Shown: positions 42,789 to 56,231 of the stretch, piece by piece
Layout of the letters: each line of letters begins with the position of its first letter
Position numbering within the stretch: position 1 is the stretch's first letter
From: a plasmid
Reading direction: 5' to 3' (one strand)
Sequence record: NZ_CP044080.1
Length of the DNA: 64,000 bases
Notes under the pieces: model-generated
The model's database searches: none
The model's input: the letters and a program-made list of their open reading frames with translations, nothing else
What the model was told of the DNA's origin: nothing
Program-made: the position numbers and the translations under genes

Positions 42789-43807
42789 GCCAGCACCACC
42801 GCGATATCCGACAGGGCGCGGCTGGAGCAGGCAAGGATATAGCCCTGGGCTTGCTCCTCGGGCGTGATGCCGCCATTCGCAGCCATCACTACCTGGCCCG
42901 AGACCAGCTTGACCATGCAGGTGCCGCACATGCCTTCGCCGCAGCCGCAGGGGATGATGACGCCGTGGCGCAGGCTGGCTTGCAGCACGCTTTCGTCGGG
43001 GCGGATCGCCACGTCGCGGCCGGCGACCGTCATCGCGAAAGCCGGGCCGTCTTGGGCCACGGGGGCCGGGGCCGCCACGGGAACCGGCGCCCCGCCAAAG
43101 CTTTCGGTATGGAACTGTGCCTTGTCGCCGCCCTCGGCCGCGTGGATCAGCTGCGCCTCGGTCATGAAGCCCTGGGGCCCGCAGCAGAACACCTCGCGCC
43201 GCCCCAGATCGGGCAGGGCAGCGGCCAGCAGGGTGCGCGAGATGCGGCCGCGATAGCCGAACCAGCCGGGCGCCGGTCGGGTGACGCTGACCGCCACGCT
43301 GAGGTTTGGCATCCGCGCCTGCAATTCGGCCAGTTCGGCGGCGAACAGCACCTCGGCCGGCGCGCGGGCGGCGTGGAACCAGGCCACATCGGCCAGCGGC
43401 TCGGTCGCCGCAAGATGGCGCAGCATGGCGATCATCGGCGTCGCCCCCGACCCGCCCGAGACGAAGGCCAGCCGGTCATGGCATCGCAGCGCCAGCGTGA
43501 AATGGCCGCGCGGGCTGCGCGCCTGGACCCGCGCGCCGGGGGTCAGGTTCGCGTGCAGCCAGCGCGTCGCGCCGCCCTCGGCCTGCGCCTTGATCGTCAG
43601 TGCCAGGTCGCCATCCGTCCCGCCCGAGATGGTGAAGCTCCGCCAGACCGGCCCGCCGGGCAGCGGCACCCGCAGCACCAGCGCCTGGCCGGGGACAAAG
43701 CCCACCGGCGCCGCGCCGCGCAGCCGAAAGCTGCGGATCGTCGGGGTTTCATCCGCCACGCCGACACAGGTCAGCTCCAGCAGTCCGGCGTCGCCTGGCA
43801 TGGTCAT
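42785..43807 (-). CDS. gbcB: Rieske-oxygenase reductase component (FNR-like FAD/NAD domain plus C-terminal 2Fe-2S ferredoxin), GbcB/CntB-like
   Basis: 340 aa with RSFTIS (RxYS-type FAD), an NAD fold (FVSGGSGATP) and C-terminal CGCGEGMCGTC 2Fe-2S cysteines. It is translationally coupled to the upstream Rieske gene. Confidence 0.8.
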   Translation of the reverse strand: MTMPGDAGLLELTCVGVADETPTIRSFRLRGAAPVGFVPGQALVLRVPLPGGPVWRSFTISGGTDGDLALTIKAQAEGGATRWLHANLTPGARVQARSPRGHFTLALRCHDRLAFVSGGSGATPMIAMLRHLAATEPLADVAWFHAARAPAEVLFAAELAELQARMPNLSVAVSVTRPAPGWFGYRGRISRTLLAAALPDLGRREVFCCGPQGFMTEAQLIHAAEGGDKAQFHTESFGGAPVPVAAPAPVAQDGPAFAMTVAGRDVAIRPDESVLQASLRHGVIIPCGCGEGMCGTCMVKLVSGQVVMAANGGITPEEQAQGYILACSSRALSDIAVVLA

Positions 43808-45036
43808 TCCGCCGCCATCCGCGCCGCCGGTCCGCCGATGTGATCGGCCATCTTGCCCGCATACCAGTCCGAGAAGTTCCGCAGCATGAATTCGGAGGGC
43901 GCATAGGGGCCGGGCTTGTAGGCGCGGGACAGGATGCCGCGATGGTTGTTCTCGGCCAGGATCCGGTCCTCGTCATTGGTGGCGGTCCAGACCTCGGTCA
44001 GGCGCTGGATGTCGTAATCGACGCCCTCGACGGCGTCTTCGTGGACCAGCCAGGTCGTCCTGACGGCGGTGCGGTTGGCCGACAGCGGCAGGACGCGGAA
44101 GTGGATGATGTGGTCGGACAGGAAATGGTTCCAGTTGTTCGGCACGCGGAACATCCGCACCGAGCCAAGGTCGGGTTCGGTGAAGTCGGCGAGCAGCTTG
44201 TTGCAGGCGAGCCCCCCGTCCATGGTGAAGGACAGGCAGTTTTCGTTGAAGGGCAGACGGATGCAGCGGAACTCCAGCCCGCCGTCGGCCGGCTTGTGCG
44301 GCAGGCCCAGCCGGTCCCAGCGGTCGGTCGAACGGCCCATCAGCCCTTGGAACTGCGCCGCCACCAGCGGGTCGTCGGGCAGCGCGAATTCGACCAGCGT
44401 GACCAGCAGTTCCGGGTGGTTGCCCGCGCAATGATAACATTCGCGGTTGTTTTCGATCACCAACTTCCAGTTCGCTTCCTCGACGATAGTGGTCGAAAAG
44501 GCGACCTTGGTGCGATCGGGCCTGTGCGGTTCGATATAGGGCGTGACGCCCGCGCGGAACGCGGCCAGCGACGGCGGCTGGTCGGCGATGCAGACATAGA
44601 CCATGCCGCAGATCACCTCGACATGGACCGGGGCAAGACCATGCGCGGCCTTGTCGAAACCCTCGGGCATCTGGCGGGCGTTGATCAGCCTGCCGTCCAG
44701 TTCATAGACCCACTGGTGATAGGGGCAGACCAGCCGGTTCGCGCGACCCTGTTCCTTCTGGCAGATCAGCGATCCGCGATGGCGGCAGGTGTTGTGGAAT
44801 GCCGCCACCGCGCCGTCGCGGTTGCGCAGCACAACGATGGGATTGTCGCCGATCTGCAGGGTGACATAGTCGCCCGGGCGCGGGATCTCGGCCAGGTTGC
44901 AGGCGAACAGCCAGTCGGTTTCGAACACCGCCTTCATGTCGGCCCGAAAGATCTCCTCATCGACATAGAAGTCGCGCGGCAGCGAATGGCCGGGTTTGCG
45001 GTCCTGCAAGAGCTGGGCGATCCTGTCGTTCAGCAT
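43804..45036 (-). CDS. gbcA: Rieske [2Fe-2S] non-heme-iron oxygenase, quaternary-amine N-demethylase family (GbcA / Stc2 / CntA-like)
   Basis: 410 aa with a Rieske CRHRGSLIC...CPYHQW motif, and a mononuclear Fe His-His-Asp region (NNRECYHCAGNHPEL). It is adjacent to the betaine-type ABC transporter. Confidence 0.8.
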   Translation of the reverse strand: MLNDRIAQLLQDRKPGHSLPRDFYVDEEIFRADMKAVFETDWLFACNLAEIPRPGDYVTLQIGDNPIVVLRNRDGAVAAFHNTCRHRGSLICQKEQGRANRLVCPYHQWVYELDGRLINARQMPEGFDKAAHGLAPVHVEVICGMVYVCIADQPPSLAAFRAGVTPYIEPHRPDRTKVAFSTTIVEEANWKLVIENNRECYHCAGNHPELLVTLVEFALPDDPLVAAQFQGLMGRSTDRWDRLGLPHKPADGGLEFRCIRLPFNENCLSFTMDGGLACNKLLADFTEPDLGSVRMFRVPNNWNHFLSDHIIHFRVLPLSANRTAVRTTWLVHEDAVEGVDYDIQRLTEVWTATNDEDRILAENNHRGILSRAYKPGPYAPSEFMLRNFSDWYAGKMADHIGGPAARMAAE

Positions 45037-45182: not shown

Positions 45183-45207
45183 AAAAGAAATGAAAATTGC
45201 ACGCAAT
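45183..45207. promoter_or_regulatory. Candidate regulator-binding palindrome in the divergent intergenic upstream of gbcA
   Basis: The AT-rich region contains direct repeats AAAGAAATG x2 and a 12-bp palindrome ATTGCacGCAAT (45196..45207). Confidence 0.3.
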
Positions 45208-45319
45208 ACCCTGTGTTTTCAGTCAGGTCCGGCGGAAAAGAGGCTTGACCCACGGCGCCGTCGCTCCAAACTTTGATGATGGAGATGCGAATTTCGATCA
45301 ACCCGACGTCGATGGTTTC

Positions 45320-45700
45320 ATGATGGACACCTATCTCTCTGCCGCGCGCGATCTGGTGGTCGAGGGGATGCGCGAAAGCCAGGTCGCCTTGTCGTCCGAC
45401 CTTGAATTCCACCTGGCGGCGACGCTGGCGCGCTATATGCACCGGCCGATCGCGCCGGACCAGTTGACGGTTCGGCTGATGGATGCCGCCCAAAGACAGG
45501 CCCGCAGGGGCGAGTCGCGCCAGATCGGCGATGCCTGCCTGATATCCTGCGCCTTTTTCGCGGCGCGGCTGACGCGGACGGGCGGCAGCGTCGTCCACTA
45601 CGCCGGGCTTGGGCAGACGGCCTATGAAATCGCGGGCATGCCGGAGGTGGCCCACGGCTTTCCCGACATGCTGGACGTCCTGCAAGCCAGCAGCCCGTAG
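45320..45700 (+). CDS. Hypothetical protein (about 126 aa), no recognisable domain
   Basis: Strong GC3 bias from the ATG at 45320 to the stop at 45700; the upstream part of the track ORF begins at a TTG in the AT-rich promoter. It is convergent with the TPR gene of the rSAM operon. Confidence 0.5.
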   Translation: MMDTYLSAARDLVVEGMRESQVALSSDLEFHLAATLARYMHRPIAPDQLTVRLMDAAQRQARRGESRQIGDACLISCAFFAARLTRTGGSVVHYAGLGQTAYEIAGMPEVAHGFPDMLDVLQASSP

Positions 45701-45789: not shown

Positions 45790-46377
45790 CTAGCGAGATC
45801 GCTCCAGCCGGCGCAGCATGTCGTGCGACCAGGCATAGGCCGGATCAAGGCTCAGGGCGTGGCGAAAGGCGGCGCGGGCCTCGTTCCGGCGCCCCAGCGC
45901 GGTCAGGCACATGCCCAGGTTGTGGTGCACGACCGCCCGCCTGGCATCCAGCGCCAGCGCACGGCGGTAAAGCGGCAGCGCCTTGGCAGGGCGGTCCATG
46001 TCGTAAAGGACGTTCGCGGCCTCGTTCCATGCGGGTTCATAGGCCGGGTCAAGTCCCAGTGCCACGTCGAAGGCCGCCAAGGCCGGCACGAACCGCCGCA
46101 GGTCGCGTAGCACCAGGCCCAGATTGCCCCAGTTCATCGCACGGCGCGGCCCCAGCCGGATGGCGGCGGCAAAGGCCTCGTGCGCCTCGGCCATCCGGCC
46201 CTGGGTCCACAGCACCGAACCCAGGCCACGCCAAGCGTCCTCGCCCGCCAGTTGCGCACGAAATGCCGCCTCGGCCGCGTCCAGCCGGCCCGCCCGCCAC
46301 AGATCGAAGGCGTGGGCCAGGCCGGGGTCGGCGGGGCGCCAGCCCTCCCACGCCGTGGGCGGTCCGTCAGCCGGCAA
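45790..46377 (-). CDS. Tetratricopeptide-repeat protein (last gene of the rSAM/RiPP-like operon)
   Basis: 195 aa with about 5 TPR units (AEAHEAFAAAIRLGPRRAMNWGNLGLVL; AKALPLYRRALALDARRAVVHHNLGMCL). Its TTG start overlaps the upstream gene stop. Confidence 0.7.
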   Translation of the reverse strand: MPADGPPTAWEGWRPADPGLAHAFDLWRAGRLDAAEAAFRAQLAGEDAWRGLGSVLWTQGRMAEAHEAFAAAIRLGPRRAMNWGNLGLVLRDLRRFVPALAAFDVALGLDPAYEPAWNEAANVLYDMDRPAKALPLYRRALALDARRAVVHHNLGMCLTALGRRNEARAAFRHALSLDPAYAWSHDMLRRLERSR

Positions 46378-47005
46378 CGTGAAAGCACCCCGCCAGCATC
46401 ACCAGCCGTTCCCCGGCGGCCAGCGGCGGACGCAGATGCGCATGGCGCGAACCGAAGATCGCCGCCGCGCGATTGCTGCGCGCGGTCAGCCGCATCGCCA
46501 GTCCCGTGGCCGAGTTGTCGCCCCGAAAGATGAACAGCTGCATGCCGGGGCTGGGCTCGACCCCGTCGGGCCAGGCCGCGTCCAGATAGGTCAGCAGGTT
46601 GTATTTGCAGCTGTCGGCCTTGTCGCAATGCTCGCCCATGTGTTCGGAGGGGCCGGTGTATCGCGTGTAGCAGGTCGCGCTCCAGGACGGGGCGAGGCGT
46701 TCGCCGGTCAGCGCGTGCAGCCAGGCCACGACGGCGTCCGAGGACAGATAGCCCCGCGCGACGGGGCCCAGATGGGCGCGGCGGTTGTCCTGCGCGATCT
46801 CGCCCCGGTCGCGGCTGCCGGTCAGCTGCCAGCTTTCGGCATCAAGCTGACCCAGCGCTTCCTCCAGCAGGGCGCGGTGCAAGGCGGCGTTCAGCGCAGG
46901 GGGCCCAAGGACCGTGACGCCGGTGGCGCGGAAGGCGTCGACATGCGCCGGCCCAAGCGCGGAGGGGTCGGCGAAGACGGCGTCGGCAATGGGGGCGTCA
47001 GGCAT
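46367..47005 (-). CDS. Putative Fe(II)/2-oxoglutarate-dependent oxygenase-like protein (PhyH-like HxD...H), function unproven
   Basis: 212 aa with EHMGEHCDKAD (HxD) and downstream His residues (SRHAHL). It overlaps both neighbours in the operon (8-nt overlap with the HExxH gene). Confidence 0.5.
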   Translation of the reverse strand: MPDAPIADAVFADPSALGPAHVDAFRATGVTVLGPPALNAALHRALLEEALGQLDAESWQLTGSRDRGEIAQDNRRAHLGPVARGYLSSDAVVAWLHALTGERLAPSWSATCYTRYTGPSEHMGEHCDKADSCKYNLLTYLDAAWPDGVEPSPGMQLFIFRGDNSATGLAMRLTARSNRAAAIFGSRHAHLRPPLAAGERLVMLAGCFHVAG

Positions 47006-48194
47006 GGGCGGTCTCCTTCGGCAGGGCCTCGACGGCTTGGCGCAGGTCCTCCATCAGCCCGGCGCCGGCCGGGGTGGCGGTGCCGTTGTCGGACAGCACC
47101 CGCCAGCCCTGGCGCGTGTTCGCCGCCTGCCGGGCCAGCACCCCGCGCGCGAAGCGGGCCGAGGCCCCGCCCCGCGCCGCAAGCCGGTCATACCAGGCGC
47201 AGACGTTCAGAAAGGCGTGCACGCCCAGCAGCAGCCCGTCCAGCGGGCGCTTGTCGCTGCGCCAGGGGCTGTCAAAGCCCGCTGCCTCGGCTGCAGGGTC
47301 GGTCGCAACCACCAGCGGATCGACGGCCTTGGCCCAATGCATCCGCACATGGCTGGATTCGTGGCACAGGAGGTCGCCCACCGTTTCCGGCGCCCCCGCC
47401 GTCATCATGATCGTGCCGCAGAGCGATTGCGGCGAATGGCTGCGCTCATAGCCGCGCGGCGCCAGCAGGACCAGGCCCCGGACATGCCGCGCCAGCGTCT
47501 CGGCCGCCGCGGGCCAGACCTGCGCCATCAGCGCAAGGCCAGTCGCGATGCGGGCCATGGCGGCATGCAGCACCTCGCCCTCTGCCAGAGCGAAGGGCGC
47601 CAAGGCCGCCCGCACCGCAGGGTCGGCGTTCAGCACGTCAAGGCCGCCGATCCGGGGGGCTGCGTGGAACAGGGCGTTCCCGGTTCCGGGCGGTGCGGGG
47701 ATGCCGGTCGCGAAGGTTGCCGATACGCCGTCGTCGCGCATCAGCCCGACGCGGCCGCCGCTTTGGCGCAGGGCGATGACCCGCGCGCCGGGGGCGTGCA
47801 GGACGATGCGCAGATGCGGCAGCATCAGATCCGCCGCCAGATCGCCGCCGGTGAACACAAGGGTCAGATCCTCGATATCCGGGGCGCCGATCAGGTGGCG
47901 GGCCAGGGCTGCGCGTCGCTCGGCCAGGCTGCGCGGGTCCTTGACCCCGTCCGGCGCCGTGACCCCGGTATCGAGCGAGGCGAGCGGATGGCCAAAGACC
48001 CGCAGCCGCGCCGGTTCGGGGCAGGCCTTCAGGGCGCGCGCGACCTCGACCGCGCAGGGCTCGTCCGCGCCCTCCAGCATGTCCGCCGCGCGGCGCGCGC
48101 AATCCCGGGCCCAGAGCGCCTGCAGGTGGTCGATGCCCTGGCCGGGGGGGCCTGGAAAGACCAGCCCTGTCAGGTCGGATACCGGGCCGGTCAT
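46998..48194 (-). CDS. HExxH-motif protein of the kind associated with radical-SAM/SPASM peptide-modification cassettes (putative peptide hydroxylase)
   Basis: 398 aa with a single HESSH motif in the C-terminal third (LLCHESSHVRMHW). Its ATG overlaps the rSAM stop (ATGA). Confidence 0.7.
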   Translation of the reverse strand: MTGPVSDLTGLVFPGPPGQGIDHLQALWARDCARRAADMLEGADEPCAVEVARALKACPEPARLRVFGHPLASLDTGVTAPDGVKDPRSLAERRAALARHLIGAPDIEDLTLVFTGGDLAADLMLPHLRIVLHAPGARVIALRQSGGRVGLMRDDGVSATFATGIPAPPGTGNALFHAAPRIGGLDVLNADPAVRAALAPFALAEGEVLHAAMARIATGLALMAQVWPAAAETLARHVRGLVLLAPRGYERSHSPQSLCGTIMMTAGAPETVGDLLCHESSHVRMHWAKAVDPLVVATDPAAEAAGFDSPWRSDKRPLDGLLLGVHAFLNVCAWYDRLAARGGASARFARGVLARQAANTRQGWRVLSDNGTATPAGAGLMEDLRQAVEALPKETAHA

Positions 48195-49759
48195 GCCGCC
48201 ACCCGCGCGGGCGTGAAATCGTGCTGGAACCGCACGCCGCCCCCTTCGAAATAGGAACAGCGGTTCAGGTGGTCGAACGCCGCCGCGTCAAAGGACAGAA
48301 GATGCATCAGCCAGGGATAAAGCGTCTTGTAGAACGCACATTCCGGCGTCTTGTGGCGCACGGTCCCATAGCTTTCCCAGGCCTGCGCCGAACAGCCCGA
48401 CTGGCAGAGCTGCCGATAGGGGCAGACCGCACAATCGTCGAAATCCGCCGGCCGGCGGGACCGGATCTCGGCGATGCGGGCAGAGCGGCGGGCCGGCTGG
48501 GACAGGCTCTCGATGCCGTCGTCGAAGATGTTGCCCAGCCGCAAGCCCGGCGATTGCGTGGCCCGCCCGCAGGGATAGATATCGCCGTTCGCCGCGACGG
48601 ATTGAAAGCTGTCGCCCGCCCCGCACTCGGCCCGCATGCAGCGGGTGCGGCGCTGCTTGCTGGTCAGAAAGCGGCACATGGAATGGATGTTATCCTCAAG
48701 CAGCAGGTCGCGCCGTGCGATGACGCCGCGCAGCAGGGCCTGGAAGAACGCGATGATCTGGTCCTGGGTCAGCCCCACCCGGTCCCAGTTCTTGCGCGCG
48801 TCGCCCAGATAGGCGACCGGGTTCACCCGAAAGCCGTGGATCGCGTGCCCCAGCATAAAGGACACCAGCCCGTCGGGATCGCCGATGTTCATGCGGTTCA
48901 GCACCACGAGGCCCCCGAAGGGGACGCCGCCCTGCTGAAGCAGCTCGATCCCACGCATCAGCGCCGGAAAGCTGGCCTTGCCGTTCACCATGGGCCGCCC
49001 GCTGTTCTGCGCCTGCGCGCCCCCGTCCAGCGAGATGCCCACGCGGATGTCATTGTCGCGCAGCCAGTCCACGCGTTCGGGCGTCAGCAGCGTGGCATTG
49101 GTCTGGATCGACAGGAACACCGTCCGCCCGCTGGCCCCCGGGTGGTTGCGGATATGATCCACCAGCCGCTGCATGATCGCGAATTTCAGGAACGGCTCGC
49201 CCCCGGCGAATTCGAATGCCAGCACCCGCGCCTCGGTCATGGCAAAGGCCAGGTCGACCGAACGCAAAGCGATGGTTTCGTCCATCGCGGGCATCTTCTG
49301 GTTCGCGCCCGCCAGGCAATAGGGACAGGCGAGATTGCATTTCTCGGTCAGCAAAAGCTCGACCAGGTGGCCCTCGTCATAGTTCGGCCCGTCGGCGAAC
49401 ATCCCGGCATCGACCGCGCGGGCACCGTTCAGCGCGATCAGCCCGCGCCGCCACAGATGCGCCGCGAAATCCAGCGCGGCGTCGGCGCTGTCCATCCGGG
49501 CCGCCAGGGCGCCGAAATCCCGCCCGTCCATCCAGCGGTGCAACGCGGCCTCGTCCGGGTTCAGGAACGCCCATGAGGCGCTTTCGGGATGGATCGCCAG
49601 GGTCTCGCCCTGGACCCGGACCTGATCGACGCCCTCGGTCGACAGTCTTGTGTCAGGACGCAGCGTGACCTGGCCGAAGGGGGCATAGGTCTTGCCCTGG
49701 GTCGCGCCCAGCCAAGGCGCCTCGGCCGCGTCGCGAGAGGGACAAAAGACATAGCGCAT
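48191..49759 (-). CDS. Radical SAM/SPASM-domain peptide maturase with N-terminal PqqD-like RiPP recognition element
   Basis: The ATG at 49759 (MRYVF) overlaps the upstream stop (TGATG). It has rSAM CNLACPYCLAG, SPASM cysteines (CGAGDSF...YPCGR...CAVCPYRQLCQSGCSA...C) and an N-terminal ~90-aa RRE-like segment (ETLAIHPESASWAFLNPDEAALHRWMDGRDFGALAARM). Confidence 0.85.
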   Translation of the reverse strand: MRYVFCPSRDAAEAPWLGATQGKTYAPFGQVTLRPDTRLSTEGVDQVRVQGETLAIHPESASWAFLNPDEAALHRWMDGRDFGALAARMDSADAALDFAAHLWRRGLIALNGARAVDAGMFADGPNYDEGHLVELLLTEKCNLACPYCLAGANQKMPAMDETIALRSVDLAFAMTEARVLAFEFAGGEPFLKFAIMQRLVDHIRNHPGASGRTVFLSIQTNATLLTPERVDWLRDNDIRVGISLDGGAQAQNSGRPMVNGKASFPALMRGIELLQQGGVPFGGLVVLNRMNIGDPDGLVSFMLGHAIHGFRVNPVAYLGDARKNWDRVGLTQDQIIAFFQALLRGVIARRDLLLEDNIHSMCRFLTSKQRRTRCMRAECGAGDSFQSVAANGDIYPCGRATQSPGLRLGNIFDDGIESLSQPARRSARIAEIRSRRPADFDDCAVCPYRQLCQSGCSAQAWESYGTVRHKTPECAFYKTLYPWLMHLLSFDAAAFDHLNRCSYFEGGGVRFQHDFTPARVAA

Positions 49760-49761
49760 CA

Positions 49762-50622
49762 GGAGCTTCCTTGTAGAACAGGGACGAGGATGCGAACGCG
49801 GTCGCCATCGTGCCGAGGGCCGGGATGCCATCCGTCGGGGCCCAGGGCGATGTCGCGGCGCATCCGCGCCTCGATCCCGGCCAAAAGCGCGGGGGCCGTC
49901 CGCGCCAGCCCCCCGGCCAGACGCCGCGCGCGGGCAAGGCTGGTGGCGCAGGTCCAGGAACAGGGGAAATGTTCGGTCAGGACGGGACCGGCGTAGCGGG
50001 CAAAGACGTTCAACTCCCACGGCATCTCTGCCCCCTCCGGCCCCAGCCGCATCCGGCCCAGATCGCCCGCGCAATGCGTCACTGCCTGCGGCCAGTCGCG
50101 CAGGAACGCCTCGATGCAGCAGGGCGGATATCCCAGCGCAAGGCCCATGACCCGGTCCCAGCCCCGCGCCTCGGCCAGCCACAGCAGCCAGGCCAACGAC
50201 GCTGAGGCCGAGACGGCGACCGCCCGCCATTCCCCCGCCGCGCCGCTTGCCGGCACCCGCGCCGCGGCAAGGTTCGCATAGCCCCCCAGGCCCGCGTCCC
50301 GCTGGGGCAGGAAGGCCCAGGCCGAGGGCATGGCGGTCAGCGACCGCCGCCGCGCCCAGTCGCAGACGCCGGCGATCCAGGGCTCGGGCCCGTGCAGCAG
50401 GACTGCCGGCCGCAAGCCGGCGGCCAGCATCTCAAGCTCAGCCACGGTGCCGATGGGGGCGCCGGGCCCGGCCGCGGGGATGGCCGGGCCCGGCAGCTCG
50501 TCCTCGGGCCCATCCGGGATCGCGGCCAGCAGCGCGTCGGGCAGTCCCAGGGCCTGGGCACGGGCGCGCACCGACAGTCCCCCTTCGCCGGACCTTGGCG
50601 AGGGCGCTTTGGCGCGGTGCAT
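49762..50622 (-). CDS. Hypothetical protein with conserved-looking GYPPCC motif (DUF), second gene of the rSAM/RiPP-like operon
   Basis: 287 aa with four Cys in GYPPCCIEAF...HCAGD...CSWTC. It starts 7 nt after the precursor stop and ends in a TGATG overlap with the rSAM ATG. Confidence 0.55.
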
Positions 50623-50629
50623 GGGCGGC

Positions 50630-51256
50630 CTAGCGCCGGATGCGGGTGCCGCGCACCGTCATGTCAAAGGCCCCGGTCGCGGGCACATCGACGCGCAACC
50701 CGCCCGGCAGCGTGACCCGGGTCAGATCGCGGCCGGGGTTGAGGACCGTCGAGGGGTCGAAATTGGCATGCCCGCCCCCGTTCACGAAGCCCGGCGGCCC
50801 CGAGTTCACATGCGAGCCCGCAATCGAGCCGGGGTCGAAATTCGCGTGCCCGCCGCCGTTCACGAAACCGGGTGGGCCGGAATTCACATGCGTTCCCGTG
50901 CCCCCCGAGGGGTCGAAGTTCGCATGGCCCCCGCCGTTCACGAAGCCCGGAGGCCCCGAGTTGACATGCACCCCGGCAATCGAGCCGGGATCGAAGTTCG
51001 CGTGCCCGCCGCCGTTCACGAAACCGGGTGGGCCCGAATTGACATGCGCCCCCGAGATGCCGCCCGGATTGCGGATCGCGCCGATGGCGCTGGCCACCTC
51101 GGTGCGCAGGATCGCGGTCAGGTCCTTGAGCGAAAGATCCGCCAGCTTGGTCTCGGGCGCAAGCGACCTGCCTTGGGATGCAGGGCGGTCGGCCTCGGGA
51201 TCACTGCCTGGGGTCGTCGATTGGCCTTCCTTGGAACCCTTGGGTTCTTGTGCCAT
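50630..51256 (-). CDS. Candidate RiPP precursor: 70-aa leader, four tandem 20-aa cores HVNSGPPGFVNGGGHANFDP separated by 6-aa linkers, and a 40-aa C-terminal tail
   Basis: There is a good SD (GGAGA 7 nt before the ATG at 51256) and coding-like GC3. The repeats are identical at the peptide level while the DNA differs at synonymous sites. There is no Cys. It is the first gene of the operon, behind a 160-bp AT-richer promoter region. Confidence 0.7.
   Translation of the reverse strand: MAQEPKGSKEGQSTTPGSDPEADRPASQGRSLAPETKLADLSLKDLTAILRTEVASAIGAIRNPGGISGAHVNSGPPGFVNGGGHANFDPGSIAGVHVNSGPPGFVNGGGHANFDPSGGTGTHVNSGPPGFVNGGGHANFDPGSIAGSHVNSGPPGFVNGGGHANFDPSTVLNPGRDLTRVTLPGGLRVDVPATGAFDMTVRGTRIRR
50754..51046 (-). 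repeat. Tandem in-frame coding repeat (4 x 60 nt cores plus 18-nt linkers) inside the precursor gene
   Basis: Plus-strand units end in (c/g)acatg, period 78 nt. The peptide HVNSGPPGFVNGGGHANFDP is conserved in all four copies despite nucleotide substitutions (e.g. gggcatgccaat vs gggcacgcgaat). Confidence 0.8.
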
Positions 51257-51416
51257 GACTGAGTCTCCGTTTGCTTCAATAGAAAGTCCCAGATGTCGGA
51301 TGGATCTGGGCAGAGTCTTCCAGTCGAAAAATCACTGCAAACAGTTCGTTCAGATTACCCCAGAACAGGGATTCGAACAATCCCGCATCGCAGGCGCAAA
51401 GGCTTGCGCAGCGCCC

Positions 51417-52616
51417 CTATTGCCCGGCCGGGATCAGGGACGGATCGGCGGCCAGCGTCGTTCCGGGACTGGGCTGGGGCTCGGCGCCCTCTTCGAGTAC
51501 GCGGGCCGGCGCCGTCACCACGGCGCCCAGCGTGTGCAGCGTGCCGGCCGCGACCATGAAGATGCTGCCTCCAGAGCCGTTGTCGCTGGTCAGCCGCTGG
51601 CCCTGTGCCAGCTTGCGCCCGATCAGCCGCACGATGTCGGGGCTTTCGGCAAAGCGCGAATGGTGCGTGCCGCCCGGCACGTCGATCTGGCTCAGGTCGA
51701 TGGCGTCGATCCCCGCCTGCAGCAGGGCGGTGCGATAGGGTTCGCGCGAGGGGTCGATTTCGCCCACGCGCTCGACCCGACCCGCGATCAGCCGCGACAG
51801 ACCCAGTGCGCGGTCGTCCTTGGCCATGAAGATGGTGAAATGCGGGCGCGGGGCGGCCATTTCAATGAACTGGCGGGAAAACACCTCGATGTCGATATCG
51901 GGCGAGGCGAGGACCACGTCACGGATCTTGGGATTCACGGGGCCGCTGCGGATGCTCATCTGGCGCAGCGATTCCATGGTCAGGAAGGCGCCCATGGAAT
52001 GGGCCAGGATGGTGATCTGCGTGACCGAGGAGTCGTCCGCCAGGATTCGCAGCGACTGTTCCAGCGCGGTGCGGGAATAAAGCGCGCTTTCGCGGTCATA
52101 GTTATAGCCGACGGGGCTTCCACGCGACGGCCAGGTGAACAGGATCGGTGTCGCCGCCACATCGCCGTCATGCGCGATCTGGGCCAGCCGATAGACCGCC
52201 TCGCCATAGGTCGTGTTGAACCCGTGAACGAACAGCAGCACATGGCCGCCGACGCGGTGCTGGCGCATCCAGGCCCGGCCCTGCGCCACCGAACTGATGT
52301 CCTGCACCTGGCGGACGTGGAAATCGGTCGTCGGCTGGGGCGGACGGGTGCGCGGCCACTGGATCGTGCCACTGGGGCGGTTCGCGGGGATCCCCACCTT
52401 GACCGCGTCGAGATGCAACTGCGGGTCGCGCCGGCCGCCGTAACGCTCGGCCCGGTCGGTCAACATCTGGCGGTTGGTGGCCACCAGAACATCGACCGCA
52501 GGGCCGGTCTCGACCGGGGCCACGACCGGCTGCATCAGCCCGGTCGGCCGGGGCGAGCAGGCCGACAGCATTCCCGTCAGCAGGACCAGAAGGATCGCCA
52601 GCCGCACCGGCATCAA
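51417..52616 (-). CDS. Alpha/beta-hydrolase-fold lipoprotein (DUF900-like)
   Basis: 399 aa with a lipobox (LLTGMLSAC) and a GHSMG nucleophile elbow (ILAHSMGAF). Confidence 0.8.
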   Translation of the reverse strand: MMPVRLAILLVLLTGMLSACSPRPTGLMQPVVAPVETGPAVDVLVATNRQMLTDRAERYGGRRDPQLHLDAVKVGIPANRPSGTIQWPRTRPPQPTTDFHVRQVQDISSVAQGRAWMRQHRVGGHVLLFVHGFNTTYGEAVYRLAQIAHDGDVAATPILFTWPSRGSPVGYNYDRESALYSRTALEQSLRILADDSSVTQITILAHSMGAFLTMESLRQMSIRSGPVNPKIRDVVLASPDIDIEVFSRQFIEMAAPRPHFTIFMAKDDRALGLSRLIAGRVERVGEIDPSREPYRTALLQAGIDAIDLSQIDVPGGTHHSRFAESPDIVRLIGRKLAQGQRLTSDNGSGGSIFMVAAGTLHTLGAVVTAPARVLEEGAEPQPSPGTTLAADPSLIPAGQ

Positions 52617-54958: not shown

Positions 54959-55172
54959 GCGCCGTTCCCTTTCCTTACCCTGCCTTGCCTGAATGAAAGG
55001 CACCTTGCGCCGGATTGCCGCCCGCGAACCTGACATTTGCGGCCAAAGCCACAGGGCGCGCGACGATGCGTCGCGACTCTGGCCGGGAATGACAAGAACC
55101 TGCCCGCCGCTGGCGCTTTTCTGGACCTCATCGCGATCGGGCCATTCCCGACAAGCCACAGGAAGCCGCCAG

Positions 55173-56227
55173 ATGAAGCCACTGACCCGAACCGCCCTGG
55201 TCTCTGCCGCCGCCCTTGCCGCCGCCCCGGCGCTGGCGGTCAGCGGCGAGGACGTCCTGCAAAACGCCTGCGCCGCCTGCCACGTCAAGCACGAAGACGG
55301 CCGGTGGGAACGCATCGACGCCGTCCGCAAGACGCCCGAGGGCTGGGACATGACGGTGACGCGGATGATGCGCAATCACGGCGTCGCGCTGGAACCGCAA
55401 GAGCGGGCGGCTGTGGTCCGCTACCTGTCCGACACCCGCGGTCTGACGCCCGAAGAAGCCGAGGGGCGCCGCTATATCCTGGAACGCGAACCAGTGGCCT
55501 TCGACGAGGGTCCCGATACGCTGATGACCCAAACCTGCGGCCGATGCCATTCCTATGCCCGCGTCGCCCTGCAACGCCGCACGCCCGAGGATTGGGCGCA
55601 TCTGGTGAACTTCCACCTGGGCCAGTTCCCGACGCTGGAATACCAGGCGCTGGCGCGGGATCGCGACTGGTGGGGCATCGCCCAGGCCGAGATCATTCCC
55701 TTCCTCGCCAAGACCTATCCGCTGGGCGAGGCGCCGCCCGCCTTTGCCGGCGACGCTTCGGGCGACTACGTCCTGGCTGGGCGCCAGCCGGGGCGTGGCG
55801 ACTATACCGGACGGCTGGCGCTGACGAAAGCGGGTGACGATTACGCCGTGACCATGACGCTGGACTTCGCCGACGGCAGCGCAAGCTACAAGGGCACCGG
55901 CCGCATCCTGGGCGCCGGCGAATGGCGCGCGACGCTGAGCGACGGCAAGACCGGGATCCGCCAGGTCCTTGTTTTTCACGACGGCCGCTTCGACGGGCGC
56001 TGGTACCACGCCGACAGCGACGTGATCGGCGGCAGACTGGCGGCGGTGACGATGCGGGGCTTTTTACGCCAGGCGACGCCGGGCCGAACCCGGAACGCCC
56101 GATGCAGACCAACAACGCGGGCAACCTGAAGGTCATCGCCACCGTGGACACGGGTGGCGTGCCGCTGACCGCCGAGGCGCATCTTTACGCCACGGTTCAG
56201 CGCTTTGTCGACGCGCCGATCCGGTGA
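55173..56227 (+). pseudogene. Quinohemoprotein amine dehydrogenase alpha-subunit (QhpA)-like gene, shortened and frameshifted
   Basis: Signal peptide plus a di-haem c domain (CAACH, CGRCH). The frame breaks near 56060-56100 and continues in another frame (MQTNNAGNLKVIATVDTGGVPLTAEAHLYATVQRFVDAPIR) to the TGA at 56225. The total of about 350 aa is far shorter than typical ~500-aa QhpA. Confidence 0.6.
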
Positions 56228-56231
56228 CGCC

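Follow-up and report, generated by a model that had tools for sequence, protein, structure and literature searches.

A candidate six-gene RiPP-type cassette encoding a radical SAM enzyme, a DUF483-like partner and two predicted hydroxylases on a Paracoccus yeei plasmid

In triceptide chemistry, a 5'-deoxyadenosyl radical abstracts the C-beta hydrogen of the third residue (X3) of a short motif, and the radical so formed adds to the aromatic ring two positions upstream. The bonds made by the enzymes described so far include Phe-C4 to Asn-C-beta (XncB and OscB), His-C2 to the C-beta of Ala or Arg (HaaB and YhhB) and Tyr-C3 to Asp-C-beta (YxdB), and the dynobactin enzyme DynA joins Trp to Asn-C-beta as well as a His nitrogen to Tyr-C-beta (PMC11002830). 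HtkB, which connects His-C2 to Lys-C-beta, tolerates the exchange of His for Phe (PMC11499958), and MicB installs three rings in one core, one of them at His-Ala-Ser (PMC12912966). Among the alpha-ketoglutarate (aKG)-dependent HExxH enzymes, ChlB hydroxylates Asp and His on pre-formed cyclophanes, BpmH acts in biphenomycin biosynthesis, and PflC/PosC carry out Gln/Asn hydroxylation and oxidative backbone cleavage (PMC12636437). Here we analyze six genes, A to F, at positions 45790-51256 of a 64,000-nucleotide stretch of the Paracoccus yeei plasmid NZ_CP044080.1 (the window), which encode a repeat peptide, a DUF483-like protein, a radical S-adenosylmethionine (SAM) enzyme, an HExxH protein, a predicted 2-oxoglutarate (2OG) oxygenase and a tetratricopeptide repeat (TPR) protein. 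The reading we favor, if by a modest measure, is that they form a self-contained, horizontally mobile cassette for a ribosomally synthesized peptide with post-translational modifications (RiPP), maturing the repeat peptide by cyclophane cross-linking and hydroxylation.

An earlier note on this DNA, made from its letters alone, had described four exact copies of a 20-residue unit in a Cys-free protein of 208 residues encoded by gene A, and all four are present at the protein level (Table 1). The corresponding 60-nucleotide copies vary at 14 columns, every one of which is a third codon position with synonymous changes; the chance of such an outcome is about 2e-7, assuming that variable columns fall at random codon positions. 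Because all of the differences are synonymous, we conclude that the peptide is translated and under strong purifying selection. Each repeat contains the triplets HVN, FVN and HAN, which are aromatic(1)-X2-X3 motifs of the type that defines the triceptide product class, and H-x-N accounts for all eight His residues of the P. yeei precursor (mean of 1.0 and maximum of 5 in 2000 shuffles).

Homologs of gene A fall into 86 clusters, every one unnamed, with named hosts that include Nitrosospira, Nitrosovibrio, a Nitrosomonadales metagenome-assembled genome (MAG) and Neomegalonema. The precursors, 140-372 residues long, begin with an amphipathic helix (K-[LI]-S-[DE]-L-T-[IV]-x-D-L...) and usually end in a conserved tail (V-T-L-P-D-G...R-G-x-x-I-x-R); between these lie one to five cores, or seven in a cyanobacterial locus (L008), separated by linkers that are free in both length and sequence. 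The 274 core units drawn from the 86 clusters are nearly uniform, with an identical 18-mer in 215 of them. Conservation reaches 100% at H1, N3, S4, G5, P6, N11, G14, H15, N17 and F18, Phe stands at position 9 in 90% and His in 10%, the middle residues (X2) of the triplets vary among Val, Ala, Thr and Ile, D19-P20 is 95% conserved, and a Gly at position -2 precedes 78% of the cores. At the sequence level, a Phe/His-switchable aromatic, a free X2 and an invariant Asn make up the substitution pattern expected of triceptide-type cyclophanes. This family-wide pattern, together with the published Phe-X-Asn and His-X-X cyclophanes, supports the motif class that the earlier note had suggested. Two other chemistries were rejected: thioether links, because the substrate has no Cys (3 in 17,059 residues across the homologs), and TvgB-type Val cyclopropanation, given that Ala, Thr or Ile can stand in for the Val at X2. 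No NCBIfam model matched the precursor, including that of the cyanobacterial Gly-rich repeat family.

Several precursor variants depart from this plan. In one, a LysM domain at the N-terminus replaces the usual leader region, and others start with a hydrophobic stretch that resembles a signal peptide, contain Gln-rich linkers and lack the C-terminal tail (the variant entries are L007:8001-8885, P0045; L006:8001-8537, P0083; and P0086 from Neomegalonema). These forms hint at a possible action of the product outside the cytoplasm in certain lineages.

Using the B family as bait, we collected 40 metagenomic loci and called their genes with hidden Markov models built from our own alignments. In a set that pools earlier loci with these new ones, all six genes occur in the same order in 11 of the 11 loci that have a close relative of B and are long enough, the other loci ending at contig ends, and gene A lies directly upstream of B in each of the 11 complete loci and in the incomplete ones that reach that far. 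The order A-B-C-D-E-F is found between unrelated flanks in Nitrosospira sp. NRS527, in two metagenome contigs (one of them flanked by insertion sequence, IS, elements), in the LysM variant and in a cyanobacterial MAG. The earlier note had named a complete lack of co-occurrence between the enzymes and repeat peptides as grounds for giving up its proposal; the outcome is the reverse, and this order recurs in every sufficiently long locus. No additional gene family is present in the flanks of more than two of ten loci, and no protease, exporter, regulator or immunity gene is conserved there. Closer to the window, the radical SAM gene is 100% identical on plasmid pYEE46822P13 of P. yeei CCUG 46822 (NZ_CP038055.1, 410 kb), and three further P. 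yeei plasmids, all from human samples, carry the 6-kb cassette region at 98% identity. The most divergent precursor, HANSGPTKHANVPGHANFS, belongs to a cassette that sits amid IS elements, with rve integrases and an IS66 TnpB (L005, 1-8000 and 14300-15452). This IS context and the plasmid location in P. yeei are consistent with a horizontally mobile cassette.

The third gene product, C, belongs to the radical SAM/SPASM peptide-maturase superfamily, as the earlier note had it: it carries the Pfam domains Radical_SAM, Fer4_12 and SPASM, with PF04055 at 1.9e-15 and PF13186 at 3.5e-5, both beyond their cut-offs, and it combines a CxxxCxxC motif with the SPASM Cys residues. Across 26 relatives, the three radical SAM Cys (141/145/148) and seven or eight SPASM Cys (374/379/443/446/452/456/474), including a C-x2-C-x5-C-x3-C stretch, are invariant, and this full SPASM Cys set counts in favor of a cross-linking enzyme. 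Of the NCBIfam peptide-maturase models, 75 matched C, all far under their cut-offs: DynA scored best at 151 bits (cut-off 450), followed by PapB (150), anSME (136), nif11-rSAM (130), HxsB (130; 129.6 against a cut-off of 370), CbpB (127), QhpD (119) and DarW (117), and the XyeB and FxsB models lay outside the top 25 matches. The nearest solved structures by sequence are CteB, which is the nearest Protein Data Bank (PDB) entry, anSME and the radical SAM domain of ChlB. On these grounds C represents, by sequence, an unassigned clade of SPASM peptide maturases. Its homologs form more than 500 clusters, cyanobacterial ones among them.

In the loci found with the B family, B always adjoins a radical SAM gene. 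The second gene had been read as a domain of unknown function bearing a GYPPCC motif, and its matches to Pfam DUF483 (PF04467) are weak: B itself scores 16 bits against a gathering score of 25, nine of ten close B relatives match weakly at the GYPxCC region (best 2e-5), and one distant relative exceeds the Pfam cut-off (34.7 versus 25 bits). Judged by these matches, B is at best a remote member of the DUF483 superfamily. Across 21 highly divergent relatives the invariant features are, in order, G-[YF]-P-x-C-C, an Asn, an Arg and H-[FL]-P-C-x-x-x-C, given for B itself as G-Y-P-x-C-C ... N..R ... H-F-P-C-x-x-x-C, a Cys4/His signature that would bind a metal and that leads us to presume that B is a metal-binding partner of the radical SAM enzyme. 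An AlphaFold2 model of B from seven sequences was unusable (predicted local distance difference test score, pLDDT, 38.5). The P. yeei-type protein (287-292 residues; window 49759-50622) is shorter than the B proteins of other lineages (340-438 residues; L003-L008 compared), as it has neither their N-terminal segment of about 40 residues nor their C-terminal segment of 60-80 residues; the long forms begin with a conserved D-P-V-F-R-R-x-L-R-x-x-P.

The remaining three proteins also fit the outline given by the earlier note, that of an HExxH protein, an oxygenase-like protein with an HxD...H motif and a TPR protein. D scores 89.6 bits against TIGR04267 ('aKG-HExxH-type peptide beta-hydroxylase', IPR026337; cut-off 40) and aligns with the solved HExxH domains 22nu (1.6e-9) and ChlH 8s5f; H278, E279 and H282, which form H278-E-S-S-H282, and H326 are invariant. 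By these sequence measures D is a bona fide member of a family since shown to consist of aKG/Fe(II) peptide beta-hydroxylases (PMC12636437). E matched none of the named 2OG oxygenase families, with no hit in Pfam or NCBIfam at E <= 0.1, and its best match among PDB sequences was PolD (E 0.054). An exhaustive HMMER search of 1.84 billion proteins found only 110 representatives of its relatives. An AlphaFold2 model based on an alignment of 56 relatives (pLDDT 95.5; predicted template modeling score, pTM, 0.91) adopts the fold of a double-stranded beta-helix (DSBH) and holds a 2-His-1-carboxylate triad along with a basic residue for 2OG binding, the defining features of the 2OG/Fe(II) superfamily, and across the 56 sequences only H126, D128, G185, H190, R192 and C207 are invariant. 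The predicted structure and the invariant triad thus identify E with high confidence as a DSBH 2OG oxygenase with a hydroxylase-type HxD...H triad, in a new small family. A role as a MicC-like oxidative protease was considered for E and is backed by neither sequence nor fold ranking. F matches TPR_1 and TPR_2 in Pfam. Because E-TPR fusion proteins exist within the E family (P0222, P0225, P0227, P0236 and P0278), one E-F fusion belonging to a B-C-D-(E-F) cassette (L050:2548-8814, where an extra 2OG-FeII_Oxy_3 gene comes next), E and F almost certainly work together, and F is probably the substrate-binding partner of E. The E-family domain is also found at the C-terminus of larger proteins (P0247, 1070 residues; P0265, 538 residues; P0239, 298 residues), the remaining parts of which match no Pfam or NCBIfam family.

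By open reading frames and sequence, the six minus-strand genes are translationally coupled, with a gap of 7 nt between A and B and overlaps of 1 (B/C), 4 (C/D), 8 (D/E) and 11 nt (E/F). The arrangement is as first described, six co-directional coupled genes behind a 160-bp AT-richer region, which has a GC content of 52.5% compared with 71% for the operon. A Shine-Dalgarno sequence, GGAGA, precedes gene A at 51264-51268. A scan for sigma-70 promoter and terminator consensus sequences and an Rfam search found nothing at the cassette, a result that is uninformative in an alphaproteobacterium of 67% GC. RefSeq annotates exactly these six genes on a P. yeei plasmid of 98% identity, naming three of them ('radical SAM protein', 'HEXXH motif-containing putative peptide modification protein' and 'tetratricopeptide repeat protein') and leaving the three others 'hypothetical'.

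Table 1. Features of the cassette in the window (64,000 nt of NZ_CP044080.1), with what each is or the basis on which it was placed
Feature	Position	Strand	Description or basis
Upstream intergenic region, presumed promoter	51257-51416	-	160 nt, before gene A
Gene A	50630-51256	-	Precursor, 208 aa, no Cys
Gene A, conserved N-terminal helix	about 51074-51148	-	Homolog conservation
Gene A, core repeat 1, HVNSGPPGFVNGGGHANFDP	50987-51046	-	Exact 20-mer
Gene A, core repeat 2, HVNSGPPGFVNGGGHANFDP	50909-50968	-	Exact 20-mer
Gene A, core repeat 3, HVNSGPPGFVNGGGHANFDP	50831-50890	-	Exact 20-mer
Gene A, core repeat 4, HVNSGPPGFVNGGGHANFDP	50753-50812	-	Exact 20-mer
Gene A, conserved C-terminal tail	50633-50752	-	Tail pattern in 54/86 homolog clusters
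Gene B	49759-50622	-	DUF483-like, 287 aa, GYPPCC
Gene C	48191-49759	-	Radical SAM/SPASM, 522 aa
Gene C, N-terminal domain, aa 1-135	49355-49759	-	Sequence
Gene C, CxxxCxxC	49316-49339	-	Radical SAM cluster motif
Gene C, SPASM Cys region	about 48338-48640	-	Cys conservation
Gene D	46998-48194	-	aKG-HExxH type, 398 aa
Gene D, HESSH	47349-47363	-	HExxH motif
Gene E	46367-47005	-	2OG/Fe(II) oxygenase fold (predicted), 212 aa
Gene E, H126-x-D128	46622-46630	-	Part of the triad
Gene E, H190-x-R192	46430-46438	-	Triad His and 2OG-binding Arg
Gene F	45790-46377	-	TPR protein, 195 aa, TTG start

From the observed gene set, the families and folds of its products, their co-occurrence, the selection on the peptide and the conservation of its motif, we propose the following model for the substrate, the cross-links, the order of the steps, the sites of hydroxylation and the role of the product. 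Gene A would supply an amphipathic-helix leader, two to seven near-invariant cores of 18-20 residues and usually a conserved tail. C, with B as its obligatory partner, would abstract the C-beta hydrogen of each invariant Asn, and the Asn C-beta would be bonded to the ring of the aromatic residue that lies two positions upstream (His1-x-Asn3, Phe/His9-x-Asn11 and His15-x-Asn17), yielding three three-residue cyclophane rings per core and hence 12 in the P. yeei precursor. D would then beta-hydroxylate residues in or beside the rings, as ChlB-H does, and E, placed by F, may add a further hydroxyl, most plausibly in the Ser-Gly-Pro(-Pro-Gly) segment or at Asp19/Pro20. Prolyl hydroxylation by E and F would be an attractive guess from the prolyl-4-hydroxylase (P4H)-like fold, the TPR partner and the invariant S-G-P(-P-G). 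The cassette has neither a protease nor an exporter of its own, and any release of single units would occur through host functions or oxidative cleavage. Because the core is near-identical across phyla, we speculate that the product serves a conserved physiological role rather than that of an antibiotic, with metal binding as the leading guess.

A number of observations weigh against this model. Precursors of 140-372 residues with a conserved tail, LysM-fused or signal-like forms and the missing protease and exporter are all atypical for a released small RiPP, and in one related cassette (L050), unlike the others, no precursor could be recognized within the 9-kb contig. C lies far below the models of cyclophane synthases (GrrM/OscB, 86.1 versus 310 bits; YhhB, 74.1 versus 445; AmcB, 93.7 versus 425), scores no nearer to these synthases than to PapB, anSME or QhpD, and has the thioether-forming CteB as its closest solved structure. 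B retrieved nothing from the PDB by profile search, leaving it with no known fold or function and a role that is guessed. Finally, the fused PqqD-like RiPP recognition element (RRE) that the earlier note had assigned to C found no confirmation in the sequence tests: PF05402 (PqqD) matched 0 of 26 C-family members, a profile of the N-terminal domain found nothing below E 0.19 among PDB sequences, hhalign of this domain with the N-terminus of a QhpD maturase encoded elsewhere in the window was negative, and so were Pfam searches for an RRE in the isolated domain and in QhpD. A strand-strand-strand-helix-helix-helix arrangement of the 135 N-terminal residues is plausible by eye, and StsB is the sole NCBIfam model that aligns into them, starting at residue 50.

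What becomes of the modified peptide? It is possible, and we put it forward tentatively, that the product is retained as a multiply modified repeat protein, or as a cofactor- or metallophore-like entity comparable to bufferins or to the precursors of pyrroloquinoline quinone (PQQ) and mycofactocin, with metal or redox sites. Such an outcome bears on what the product does and what becomes of it, and it can hold alongside the cross-link chemistry proposed above. The core does not differ between Alphaproteobacteria and Betaproteobacteria and hardly differs in cyanobacteria, unlike the antibiotics of an arms race; the great length of the precursors, their conserved tail, the LysM-fused and signal-like variants and flanks in which no conserved protease or exporter was found would all suit a retained protein, and so would related systems with proteins of up to 788 residues and 110 H-x-[D/N] triplets. 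The composition is rich in His, and the hosts include copper-dependent ammonia oxidizers; genes for metal homeostasis or redox functions are, however, not consistently adjacent to the cassette, and multi-core precursors with variable linkers usually signify several released units.

A second alternative, to which we assign a minor share of probability, keeps the cassette and its substrate and replaces the radical SAM product by another: a bond from a His nitrogen to C-beta as in dynobactin, an ether, an epimerization or an anSME-like conversion of Ser4 to formylglycine. Among curated models C is best matched by DynA, PapB and anSME, not by triceptide synthases, and its nearest structures, CteB and anSME, point the same way; DynA itself makes a His-N to Tyr-C-beta link, and the invariance of the Asn residues of the core is shared by Ser4, Gly5 and Pro6. 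Yet three equally spaced aromatic-X-Asn triplets with a Phe/His swap and a free middle residue fit cross-linking from i to i+2, and neither epimerization nor Ser oxidation needs any of these. The distant systems that pair a radical SAM enzyme with B retain only the H-x-[D/N] triplet and have no S-G-P segment, and thioether and cyclopropyl products fail on the missing Cys and the replaceable Val. That the repeat protein is not the substrate at all, but a structural or binding protein co-expressed with enzymes acting on another target, is very improbable: the L050 cassette with no adjacent repeat gene and the lack of a demonstrable RRE in sequence tests would allow it, but A precedes B directly in all complete loci, distant radical SAM-B pairs likewise adjoin H-x-[D/N] repeat proteins, and the extreme conservation of a short Gly-rich motif between free linkers is hard to square with a folded structural protein.

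The cross-linking and hydroxylation model gains a wider context from these distant B relatives (22-29% identity), which lie directly downstream of a different, unassigned anSME/DynA-like SPASM enzyme (L030:3726-9725, L033:1004-3267, L035:1-3007, L037-L042 and L046:317-4157). Adjoining them are His-rich reading frames with [H/Y]-x-[D/N] triplets every 4-5 residues; in three of these frames 36 of 36, 59 of 60 and 15 of 17 His residues lie within H-x-[D/N], and one frame encodes 788 residues with 110 triplets. Counterparts of D, E and F (HExxH, 2OG and TPR proteins) are absent from these loci, and their repeats have no S-G-P-P-G, G-G-G or F-D-P elements. Because distant radical SAM-B pairs adjoin H-x-[D/N] repeat proteins, the pair can be tied to this triplet. 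We infer that it constitutes the core machine, targeting aromatic-X-Asn/Asp, and that D, E and F would be add-ons that go with the additional invariant residues of the 20-mer. The distant loci look like an undescribed sister system. Speculatively, and at odds that we regard as rather less than even, the radical SAM enzyme and its DUF483-like partner may define an unrecognized superfamily that modifies His-X-Asn/Asp triplets in substrates that range from peptides with two to seven 20-mers up to proteins in which the triplets exceed 100, to which the branch in P. yeei, Nitrosospira and cyanobacteria would have added two Fe/2OG hydroxylases. The result would be a densely cross-linked, hydroxylated, His-rich scaffold with a conserved physiological (metal or redox) role and not an antibiotic, formed by a chemistry that may differ from that of triceptides and may need B. 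One of these loci also encodes a B-like N-terminal domain (GYPQCC...HLPCSFCC) fused to a SAM-dependent methyltransferase (Methyltransf_25; L030:8166-9725) beside a stand-alone B-like gene.

Neighboring genes in the window were considered as further members of the cassette and rejected. A Rieske oxygenase as the seventh gene is a coincidence, given that the copies in the window and in L004 are 26% identical and the former is a GbcA-like glycine-betaine monooxygenase (43804-45036, minus strand, downstream of the cassette). An upstream alpha/beta hydrolase (51417-52616) and a small reading frame (45197-45700) are not conserved with the cassette elsewhere and have no family match. About 4-5 kb upstream of the cassette, on the plus strand, lies a fragment of a quinohemoprotein amine dehydrogenase cluster (54993-59050), in which the QH-alpha match spans only model positions 6-288 of 510 and the radical SAM maturase QhpD, the second SPASM enzyme of the window and unrelated to the cassette, matches only positions 1-384 of 467. 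Next comes a reading frame for an aldehyde dehydrogenase, where strain FDAARGOS_252 (L002) has qhpC/peaD; the cluster may be rearranged or frameshifted in the strain of the window. Over positions 60001-64000 the GC content drops from about 67% to 56-61%.

What would be the significance of such a cassette? If our model is correct, it stands for a widespread, unnamed branch of radical SAM cyclophane/hydroxylase RiPPs in Alpha- and Betaproteobacteria, including ammonia oxidizers, and in cyanobacteria, and in P. yeei, an opportunistic human pathogen, it is carried on a megaplasmid. For a RiPP it is unusual that the core is identical across phyla, which points to a conserved cellular role. Three of the proteins have no assigned function and may represent a new radical SAM accessory (B), a new 2OG family (E) and a TPR adaptor (F). 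Up to 12 rings together with hydroxyl groups on one genetically encoded scaffold would also be of interest to peptide engineers.

How does the cassette compare with known systems? The thioether systems, sactipeptides, ranthipeptides and those of the QhpC type, require Cys in the core, and the precursor is Cys-free. The His-Xaa-Ser system (HxsABCD) likewise has a SPASM enzyme that, by inference, acts on a repeat protein with His-X-small-polar motifs, but C scores 129.6 against 370 bits for HxsB, the cassette has no second radical SAM enzyme or HxsD, and its motif is H-x-N/D. Collagen-type and other prolyl-4-hydroxylases share 12-20% identity with E, which has no match to the Pfam P4H family. 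Dynobactin and darobactin maturases (DynA, DarE, DarW) come closer, in that DynA is the best curated match of C and uses Asn C-beta and His; C nevertheless falls outside the DynA family at 151 versus 450 bits, and the cassette differs in its multi-core precursor, a core with no Trp or Tyr, and other accessory genes. MicC and PflC/PosC are small aKG/Fe enzymes encoded, like E, beside radical SAM and HExxH genes, and the Gly before most cores of the cassette recalls their sites. By cutting at Gly or Ala, which leaves a C-terminal amide, they can take the place of a protease (PMC12912966; PMC12636437).

The earlier note had called the system undescribed, which holds for the family and its extra components and does not hold for the concept of a radical SAM enzyme with an HExxH protein and a repeat precursor, known from GrrM/OscB and ChlB. 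The 20-mer repeat, the His-X-Asn triplet and the RefSeq accessions were not found in the literature searched, and searches on DUF483, YxdB and PasI returned nothing relevant; published similarity networks may already include the radical SAM enzyme as an unannotated node. ChlB and the GrrA/GrrM/HExxH systems resemble the cassette in combining a radical SAM cyclophane synthase with an aKG-HExxH hydroxylase on a repeat precursor. In ChlB, however, the two activities are fused, whereas the cassette encodes separate proteins and has B, E and F in addition; compared with GrrM/OscB, its precursor lies outside the cyanobacterial Gly-rich repeat model and its radical SAM enzyme at 86 versus 310 bits. 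The triceptide systems (XncB, OscB/GrrM, MscB, YxdB, HaaB, YhhB, HtkB and MicB) share with it a SPASM maturase and repeated aromatic-X-X3 motifs, often in multi-core precursors. C differs from them in falling under every curated cut-off for enzymes that form three-residue cyclophanes (3-CyFEs) and in carrying a 135-residue N-terminal domain, and the cassette differs in its DUF483-like partner, 2OG oxygenase and TPR protein, in much longer precursors with a tail and in a cross-link that is so far predicted. The precursor family, the unassigned radical SAM clade, its obligatory DUF483-like partner and the 2OG oxygenase family with a TPR adaptor are new relative to all of these systems.

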